From: a virus
Taxonomy: Duplodnaviria; Heunggongvirae; Uroviricota; Caudoviricetes
Length of the DNA: 35,065 bases
Reading direction: 5' to 3' (one strand)
Virus record (IMG/VR): IMGVR_UViG_2778261624_000006
This document shows, piece after piece, positions 22,449-23,938 of the stretch (its first letter is position 1; every line of letters begins with the position of its first letter). The position numbers were made by a program, and so were the translations under genes. The notes below the pieces were generated by a model. The model searched no databases. It was not told where the DNA came from and was given only the letters and a program-made list of their open reading frames with translations.

Positions 22449-22474
<26 letters not shown>

Positions 22475-22994
22475 TCAGCAACCCCGGTATCAGTTCATCC
22501 AGCGCGGCTGCTTTGTTCATGGCTTTGATGATATCCCGTTTCAGGAAATCAACATGTCGGTTTTCCAGTTCCGGAAAACGCCGCTGCACCGACAGGGGGA
22601 TCCCGTCGAGAATACTGGCAATTTCACCTGCGATCCGCGACAGCACGAAAGTACAGAATGCGGTTTCCACCACTTCAGCGGAGTCTCTGGCATTTTTCAG
22701 CTCCTGTGCGTCGGCCTGCGCACGCGTAAGTCGATGGCGTTCGTACTCAATAGTCCCTGGCTGGAGATCTGTCTCGCTGGCCTGCCGCAGTTCTTCAACT
22801 TCCCGGCGCAGCTTTTCGTTCTCAATTTCAGCATCCCTTTCGGCATACCATTTTATGACGGCGGCAGAGTCATAAAGCACCTCATTACCCTTGCCACCGC
22901 CTCGCAGAACGGGCATTCCCTGTTCCTGCCAGTTCTGAATGGTACGGATACTCGCACCGAAAATGTCAGCCAGCTGCTTTTTGTTGACTTCCAT
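22449..22994 (-). CDS. Nu1: terminase small subunit Nu1
   Basis: 181 aa; N-terminal helix-turn-helix; matches lambda Nu1. Confidence 0.95.
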
Positions 22995-22999
22995 TGTTC

Positions 23000-23215
23000 A
23001 TTCCACGGCCAAAAACAGAGAAAGGAAACGACAAAGGCCCAAAAGTTCGTTTTCAGCACCTGTCGTTTCCTTTCTTTTCAGGGGGTATTTTAAATAAAAA
23101 CATTAAGTTACGACGAAGAAGAACGGAAACGCCTTAAACCGGAAAATTTTCATAAATAGCGAAAACCCGCGAGGTCGCCGCCCCGTAACCTGTCGGATCG
23201 CCGGAAAGGACCCGC
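23000..23215 (-). other. cos packaging site (cosB, cosN, cosQ region); 12-nt cohesive-end sequence at about 23172-23183
   Basis: Plus strand reads CCCGCGAGGTCGCCGCCCCGTAACCTG, the reverse complement of the lambda end joint with cohesive end GGGCGGCGACCT; the region up to Nu1 matches the lambda left end. Confidence 0.9.
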
Positions 23216-23383
23216 AAAAATGATAATAATTATCATCTACATGTCACAACGTGCATCTACGCCATCAAACCACGTCAAATAATCAATTATGACGCAGGTA
23301 TCGTATTAATTGATCTGCATCAACTTAACGTAAAAACAACTTCAGACAATACAAATCAGCGACACTGAATACGGGGCAACCTC

Positions 23384-23578
23384 ATGTCAACGAAGAACAG
23401 AACCCGCAGAACAACAACCCGCAACATCCGCTTTCCTAACCAAATGATTGAACAAATTAACATCGCTCTTGAGCAAAAAGGGTCTGGGAATTTCTCAGCC
23501 TGGGTCATTGAAGCCTGCCGTCGGAGACTAACGTCAGAAAAGAGAGCATATACATCAATCCAAAGTGATGATGGATGA
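23384..23578 (+). CDS. small conserved phage protein (64 aa), Arg-rich N-terminus, possible ribbon-helix-helix DNA-binding fold
   Basis: ORF with ATG about 200 bp from cos reading away from it; GGGGCAACCTC immediately upstream as RBS; family uncertain. Confidence 0.6.
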   Translation: MSTKNRTRRTTTRNIRFPNQMIEQINIALEQKGSGNFSAWVIEACRRRLTSEKRAYTSIQSDDG

Positions 23579-23938
23579 ACATCCCGGTTTCTTCCACCAT
23601 CGCACCGGAAAAGCGACTATGAGGGTAACCCTGCGTCTGTCAGCACAGTAAAACCCGGTGTGCATCGTTTTTGATTATTCCCGCACACTCACGCAGAAGG
23701 AATTCCCCGTCGGGCTACGGTCATGGTTAATGCGGGAATACGGCGACGATACAGCGCAGCTAAAAGGGTAATGGACAGATAGAGCGGTTTATTTCATTCC
23801 ACAGGATTCTGAGTGCCCCCCCTCCTCCAATAGGCTGAGCATCCACCTATATAGTTTTAATTTTCATCAATCCATTTAACTATCGTTTAATTGTTGTCAC
23901 ATAGGATTCTGCCGTTTTTAACAATGCAGGATAATAAG

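Follow-up and report, generated by a model that had tools for sequence, protein, structure and literature searches.

What does a perfect Fur-box palindrome do when it lies directly beside the packaging site of a phage, and which of its neighbours does it serve? We addressed this question in a stretch of 35,065 nucleotides (the window), which is a lambda-like prophage whose late genes run on the - strand. Nu1 is the first gene past cos and is followed by a 641-aa ORF at the position of lambda gene A. The cohesive-end sequence in the window corresponds to the annotated 12-base sticky end of phi80, and linear phage records terminate at it. An imperfect direct repeat (AACCCGCGAGGTCGCCG at 23164-23180 and AACCTGTCGGATCGCCG at 23187-23203, 71% identity) straddles this sequence. 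The cosQ call rests on a heptamer that is the same, and at the same place, as the cosQ annotated in the phage 434 record. Together with cosN and I2, cosQ forms the packaging termination signals (PMC4669245). The gap between cosQ, which the original prediction did not mention, and the palindrome is 7 bp. The Fur box lies beyond cosQ, and late transcription and the packaging motor both reach cos from that side. The coordinates of the features are summarized in Table 1.

Table 1 Features of the cos boundary and adjoining genes in the window.
Feature	Position	Strand or sequence	Basis or remark
Core Fur box, perfect 7-1-7 palindrome TGATAATAATTATCA	23221-23235		Direct reading and pattern search
Classical 19-bp Fur consensus GATAATGATAATCATTATC, 16/19 match	23216-23234	+	0.00 expected, 100 shuffles
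Full conserved block AAATGATAATAATTATCATCTACAT	23218-23242		Column information content across 31 unrelated contexts
Sigma-70-like match, 10/12	23220-23247	-	Consensus match, unmapped promoter; toward cosQ/cosN/Nu1
cosQ, packaging-termination subsite	23207-23213	-	AGGACCC, reverse complement of GGGTCCT
cosN cohesive-end sequence	23172-23183	AGGTCGCCGCCC; - strand reads GGGCGGCGACCT	Direct reading
Nu1 (terminase small subunit)	22449-22994	-	Pfam Phage_Nu1, E = 3.9e-101; first gene past cos
ORF64, YlcI/YnfO family	23384-23578	+	Pfam DUF3950 2e-20; NCBIfam YlcI_YnfO_N

The palindrome had been predicted as a perfect 7-1-7 inverted repeat at an approximate position, about 40 bp from cosN and about 150 bp upstream of a 64-aa gene (ORF64). 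Direct reading and pattern search confirmed the position exactly, and the gaps measured 37 nt to the cohesive-end sequence and 148 nt to the ATG of ORF64. The core extends to an 8-1-8 repeat, ATGATAATAATTATCAT, at 23220-23236. The predicted match to a Fur box was also upheld: all 14 specified bases of the 7-1-7 unit TGATAATnATTATCA are present, the 19-mer is matched as listed in Table 1, and the element is the same as that of the nohB and nohA Fur sites described below. When up to two mismatches to the unit were allowed, the palindrome was the sole match in 35 kb, with 0.06 expected (6 of 100 shuffles gave one).

The prediction had left room for another factor binding near the packaging site. 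The location held, as the palindrome is an element of the cos module, while the other factor did not, only Fur being indicated. An IHF site was rejected: there is no WATCAANNNNTTR match at one mismatch or fewer within 23200-23260, and the nearest matches to the IHF consensus fall within the cosB region (23093-23105) and within ORF64 (23437-23450). An RNA hairpin or terminator was likewise rejected, since the A-U stem is weak, its energy is unexceptional (z = -1.7 and -1.0), and no intrinsic terminator was called at the palindrome.

The identical palindrome is found in the cryptic prophage DLP12 of E. coli K-12 (L004 1561-1575), in phage 434, and in phi80; Qin, also a cryptic prophage of K-12, has a variant of it. 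The DLP12 copy is located between ylcI and nohD (also named nohB), and the Qin version between ynfO and nohA. Their centres convert to positions 579824 and 1634624 of U00096.2, respectively, which are the coordinates of the Fur clusters nohB and nohA of Chen et al. 2007 (PMC2189734). Thus, the DLP12 and Qin sites are the published nohB and nohA Fur sites. In that study, nohB scored 25.3 bits and was the third strongest predicted Fur cluster in K-12, and Chen et al. cite for it the paper on Fur titration by Stojiljkovic et al. 1994. For nohA, the score was 22.3 bits, an oligonucleotide was gel-shifted at 150 nM Fur, and Chen et al. credit Vassinova and Kozyrev 2000 with the in vivo selection of a nohA fragment (PMC2189734). 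Table 4 of the same paper lists -133 for nohB; the coordinates imply -233, the same as for nohA. A later paper routinely counts nohB among Fur-regulated genes, and the target named in the literature for the homologous sites is the noh genes, that is, the Nu1 homologs.

The identity between the window and DLP12 begins 5 bp ahead of the palindrome and continues for at least 160 bp past it, and in both the element has the same placement with respect to cosQ, cosN, the Nu1 homolog, and ylcI. They differ in one extra A in an A-run of the window and in the base directly after cosQ, which is G in the window and A in DLP12. The terminase genes also differ, as the window prophage has a full-length ORF at the place of lambda gene A, whereas DLP12 has only a terminase fragment. 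Qin nohA is a homologous element at the same place with a near-identical site, but its central base is G where the window has A (Qin palindrome, TGATAATGATTATCA), the base before the palindrome is G, so that the last T of a -10-like hexamer is lost, and the -35-like hexamer reads GTGATA. We take the right end of wild-type lambda to be the Qin-type allele TGATAATGATTATCA. The window allele is the nohB allele, and the published in vitro Fur shift was obtained with the nohA allele, which differs from the window at the central base. Of 5,426 complete E. coli genomes, 4,661 contain a matching sequence, which amounts to 9,861 places in total. That the window palindrome is a Fur site already known through its homologous nohA and nohB copies is well supported, and, judged from its sequence, the window DNA very probably binds Fur. 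As a Fur site, the window palindrome adds nothing new, nohA and nohB being textbook members of the Fur regulon.

A Fur site could act without any cis target, as a decoy on replicating, high-copy phage DNA that derepresses the iron regulon of the host in the lytic phase by titrating Fur. Methods relying on Fur titration or on in vivo selection yielded the homologous fragments, as related by Chen et al., and the site is among the strongest predicted in K-12 (PMC2189734). Such recovery indicates that the site is able to titrate Fur in multiple copies. A decoy would, however, not need a fixed position beside cosQ, and one site per genome offers limited titration capacity. We consider this role most improbable.

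Published genome-wide data were used to ask where Fur occupies such sites. In CFT073, the ChIP-exo peak P53 (1424699-1424711) was detected under iron-replete conditions only (Gao et al. 2023, PMC10164565). The peak overlaps the phage-21-type palindrome TGATAATTATTCTCG (L006 995-1009), which adjoins cosQ. The genes flanking P53 showed log2 ratios (delta-fur/wild type) of 1.34 for the terminase large subunit C_RS07355, 2.13 for C_RS07370, 2.33 for C_RS07340, and 2.95 for C_RS26755 (PMC10164565). This up-regulation could be indirect, for example through prophage induction in the delta-fur strain.

Two further genes near cos regions were observed in this connection. The CFT073 phage-21-type prophage contains a divergent ORF (L006 645-965, - strand) that RefSeq does not currently annotate; past an internal start, its N-terminal stretch, MKIRNILAISLATSSFSCLAF, is hydrophobic, and it lies approximately 100 bp from the Fur-bound palindrome. 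This ORF may be the delta-fur-induced TU53 of Gao et al. In phi80, PHI80_64 (L002 961-1191), approximately 0.9 kb from cos, is annotated as 'putative Fur-regulated protein' and may be a second link between the cos region and Fur.

The DLP12 prophage is presumably located between sfm and fepA in BL21(DE3). The ChIP-exo tables for this strain contain no peak in that interval, those for MG1655 list a Fur peak at neither the nohD nor the nohA site, and those for other strains contain no peak whose transcriptional unit is named nohD (PMC10164565). In the RNA-seq data, nohD was silent in both wild type and delta-fur MG1655, and nohD, ylcI, and ynfO were slightly down in delta-fur W3110 at very low counts; none of these three genes was derepressed in K-12 delta-fur (PMC10164565). 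A regulatory output is thus seen in one strain only, CFT073, and could be indirect there. We place the chance that Fur binding affects transcription at the cos boundary slightly below even.

Conservation of the palindrome in other lambdoid genomes had been proposed as a check of the original prediction. We sampled cos sites with a pattern that does not include the palindrome, CCGCCCCG-N17-GGAAAGGACCC, comprising the left half of cosN and cosQ. Genome and viral collections were scanned, true cos sites (CCGCCCCGTA...) were kept, and duplicates were removed; the sample also takes in a few loci fetched earlier by similarity. Among the matches listed, 69 of 93 unique lambda-type cos regions bear the palindrome with three mismatches or fewer to TGATAATnATTATCA, and the conservation was thereby borne out. 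Within 16 bp of cosQ, zero, one, two, and three mismatches were found in 29, 16, 15, and 9 of the listed regions, respectively. The other 24 of the 93 have 6-9 mismatches, which is background-like, and no listed region has 4-5. The background probability of three mismatches or fewer elsewhere in the same loci is 0.2%. In the cos regions among the matches listed, the palindrome starts 3-7 bp past cosQ, most often 5.

Clustering of the bearers by downstream sequence gave 31 unrelated contexts among the matches listed, in phages of Escherichia, Kluyvera, Citrobacter, Klebsiella, Kosakonia, Buttiauxella, and Dryocola. The consensus of the block across the contexts is AAA(T/C)GATAAT(R)ATTATCA(W)TT(R)CAT, and this sequence is readable as a putative array of four to five Fur hexamers. 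Counted from the palindrome start, columns -3 to +21 have a high information content in the 31 listed contexts, and the value is about 0 after +22, so that conservation ends approximately 7 bp beyond the palindrome across unrelated contexts. In BLAST searches against phages, similarity to phage 21, phi80, N15, and Stx1a phages likewise covers cos and the palindrome and breaks off a few bp later. Lambda, 21, phi80, and N15 all have the element despite their different terminase and cosB specificities, suggesting that a host rather than a phage protein is the natural ligand.

Some cos regions depart from this arrangement. Those without the palindrome among the matches listed have no Fur-like site within 120 bp, where scores are background-like, and displaced Fur sites were rejected on this ground. 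In a lineage represented by L067 4133-4154 (with L069, L100, L102, L119, and L175), a lambda-type cos without the Fur palindrome is abutted at cosQ by an intrinsic terminator (AAGGCCGGAGAAATCCGGC and a T-run). We tried this terminator as an equivalent of the Fur box and rejected it, as it merely ends the structural-gene operon running toward cos and the parallel is weak. Gifsy-1-type cos regions (L180 about 1270-1330; L072 and L143) have another AT-rich inverted repeat, TTGTTACAATATAACAA, in place of the Fur palindrome, approximately 20 bp beyond cosQ. At the other extreme, a Buttiauxella MAG (L039) has two perfect TGATAATGATTATCA copies, 26 bp apart, beyond cosQ.

Cos sequences were also observed in assemblies with unexpected labels. 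A sequence identical to the Qin/lambda-type cos region is present in L009, L011, L015, L026, L028, L032, L038, L040, and L046, and one identical to the phi80 cos region in L043, under the labels Oceanobacillus, Neobacillus, Shewanella, Leeuwenhoekiella, Raphidiopsis, Aeromicrobium, Archangium, an Alicyclobacillus 'plasmid', and some MAGs. Several of these matches lie no more than approximately 25 bp from the edge of their contig, and a coverage of about 1x is given in three of the contig names. Laboratory lambda, as a contaminant or spike-in, appears to be the source.

The conservation bears on whether the palindrome is under selection at all. An AT-rich, promoter-like palindrome might bind Fur in vitro, or bind some other factor, and persist only through its linkage to cos in a module that recombines. 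The undetectable output in K-12, for which no ChIP-exo peak is given (PMC10164565), would agree with this, and the abundance of the sequence in E. coli genomes noted above could largely reflect shared ancestry. The element is also missing from 26% of the cos regions among the matches listed, so it is dispensable there. However, the distribution of mismatches is sharply bimodal, with 0-3 or at least 6 and an empty class between them among the matches listed, and the palindrome is kept while the adjoining cosN-cosQ spacer diverges. The G at position 2 of the palindrome is kept in 30 and the C at position 14 in 29 of the 31 contexts among the matches listed, and homology in unrelated contexts stops a few bp past the block. 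Another factor is further disfavoured by the lack of an IHF-consensus match at the palindrome and by the unexceptional hairpin. An element of no selected function is therefore unlikely in our judgement.

If the palindrome is a selected operator, the gene it serves has to be identified. The original prediction made it the operator of an iron-regulated promoter for ORF64, a divergent moron of the YlcI family, for which no sequence relative was found among solved structures. The start of ORF64 is 148 bp away on the outward strand. In CFT073, moreover, the transcriptional unit paired with terminase at P53, taken as the far-side one, was up 2.3-2.9 log2 in delta-fur (PMC10164565), so control of outward-facing genes by the box is possible in some phages. 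The comparison of contexts nevertheless argues against ORF64, since a homolog is present in only 4 of the 31 contexts that keep the palindrome among the matches listed. In phi80, N15, and more than 12 other contexts, the gene closest to the palindrome runs in the same direction as terminase, and its end is 10-200 bp from the palindrome. The constant neighbours of the palindrome in the 31 contexts among the matches listed are cos and the terminase operon only. In addition, the sequence TCCGGTTTCTTCCACCAT, which lies past ORF64 in the window (about 23583-23600), follows the palindrome almost directly in L063, L066, and L092. As sequence past ORF64 abuts the palindrome in other phages, ORF64 looks like an inserted cassette.

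The interval separating ORF64 from the box contains no + strand sigma-70-like promoter match at 9/12 or better toward ORF64, a box 148 bp away is rather distant to occlude a promoter of ORF64, and ylcI and ynfO were not derepressed in K-12 delta-fur, as described above. Iron control of the 64-aa gene was thus not borne out, and a role of the box as its operator is very unlikely. ORF64 is a facultative neighbour and at most an incidental beneficiary of the Fur box, and in annotation the box should be assigned to cos and terminase rather than to the 64-aa gene. An inverted repeat with 13-nt arms (ATCAATTATGACG and CGTATTAATTGAT, 85% complementary, 7-nt gap) is present at 23282-23314, between the Fur box and ORF64; this repeat could be the promoter/operator region of ORF64.

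On the strand facing terminase, the Fur box of the window overlies the spacer and the -10 of a sigma-70-like match, which consists of a -35 GTGACA (23247-23242), a 16-nt spacer, and a -10 TATCAT (23225-23220). As read from the sequence, a Fur box over the spacer and -10 of a putative promoter is classical repression geometry. The 10/12 match is present in the window and in DLP12 and is absent from the lambda/Qin allele and from phage 21; in the Qin allele, its absence is due to the G before the palindrome and to the GTGATA at the -35-like hexamer. Most other contexts have only chance-level 8/12 matches. Because the match is confined to the DLP12-type allele, a Fur-occluded promoter cannot be the conserved feature, and a conserved promoter of this kind was rejected.

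The position beside cosQ also allows a role outside transcription. Fur bound before cosQ might act on DNA packaging, as an obstacle or bend for the translocating terminase that aids or modulates termination, like IHF at cosB. The palindrome is on a fixed side and at a near-fixed spot, 3-7 bp on the approach side, in 69 of 93 regions and 31 contexts among the matches listed, its sole constant neighbours are cos and terminase, and cosQ, cosN, and I2 are the termination signals (PMC4669245). Mean information per column is 1.54 bits for the block, which is about as high as for the cosB-side cosN-proximal flank (1.52) and above the free cosN-cosQ spacer (1.06), although the value for the block is inflated because only palindrome-bearing sequences were averaged. 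Compared with lambda cos subsites, position and conservation fit, but presence in all cos sites does not, the element being missing from 26% of the lambda-type cos regions among the matches listed. The 4-bp variation in the spacing to cosQ (offsets 3 to 7) is a poor fit to a stereospecific contact. No subsite is marked at the palindrome in the records of 21, 434, and phi80, in which cos is annotated in detail, and convergent Fur boxes at unrelated cos ends were rejected, as those of HK97 and P2 have no comparable motif at three mismatches or fewer. Furthermore, fur is absent from the text of a Keio-collection screen that gave 57 host genes for lambda plaque formation (PMC2900299). A packaging accessory site is, in our analysis, a rather unlikely function.

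We therefore return to transcription at the cos boundary. We conclude that the Fur box is an accessory yet widely conserved part of the lambda-type cos/terminase module. The palindrome being a genuine high-affinity Fur operator, with Fur-dependent control of transcription at the cos boundary as its most likely role, is the reading that we prefer, and we give it about an even chance of being correct. In iron-replete cells, Fe(II)-Fur would bind the 7-1-7 core, as shown elsewhere for identical or near-identical DNA, and a second Fur dimer might occupy the flanking hexamers, so that roughly 23213-23243 would be covered. Bound Fur would occlude the AT-rich, -10-like sequence, which in the window is part of the 10/12 promoter match directed toward cos-Nu1-A. 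RNA polymerase would thereby be hindered from starting at the cos boundary, or from drifting through it, into the terminase operon, and outward transcription may also be hindered where a divergent moron is present. Iron starvation or loss of Fur would relieve the block. Under this model, terminase would stay silent in lysogens with ample iron, which have an intact cos in the chromosome.

A stronger proposal is that selection maintains the box as a facultative subsite of lambda-type cos, which could be called 'cosF', through which the iron status of the host acts on the cos boundary by means of Fur. We regard this as doubtful, though less so than the alternatives weighed above. If it were true, the site would gate terminase expression or cos cleavage in lysogens, in which the intact chromosomal cos makes stray terminase dangerous, or it would tune termination at cosQ. 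One of the strongest Fur sites of E. coli is in any case a position-locked neighbour of cosQ in approximately three quarters of the lambda-type cos regions among the matches listed. This cos-wide conservation may be new; it is undescribed in the packaging and Fur literature searched, a set outside which the key cosQ papers lie, and the only Fur box of lambdoid phages found in that literature is the one of sitABCD, at a different place.

Comparison with known systems places the element between iron regulation and packaging. It resembles classical Fur boxes, such as those of fhuA, fepA-fes, entC, cirA, and others, in its consensus and in binding that probably depends on holo-Fur, and the homologous CFT073 peak is likewise found in iron-replete cells only. 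It differs from them in abutting a DNA-packaging signal instead of a mapped promoter of an iron gene, and the derepression in delta-fur is absent in K-12 for the cos-linked site. The Fur boxes of phage-borne sitABCD in lambda-like gut coliphages (PMC6969025) are also carried by lambdoid phages and tie phage DNA to the Fur regulon. Those boxes are upstream of an iron/manganese transporter moron, where the regulatory logic is obvious, whereas the window box is at cos with no iron-related cargo adjoining (PMC6969025 for sitABCD). The third system is the IHF site I1 in cosB of lambda and 21. IHF is documented to act in the assembly of terminase at cosB, whereas the Fur site has a variable spacing to cosQ and is missing from a quarter of the cos regions among the matches listed. 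We know of no packaging role for Fur. The two sites are alike in that each is a site for a host DNA-binding protein conserved in cos across packaging specificities.
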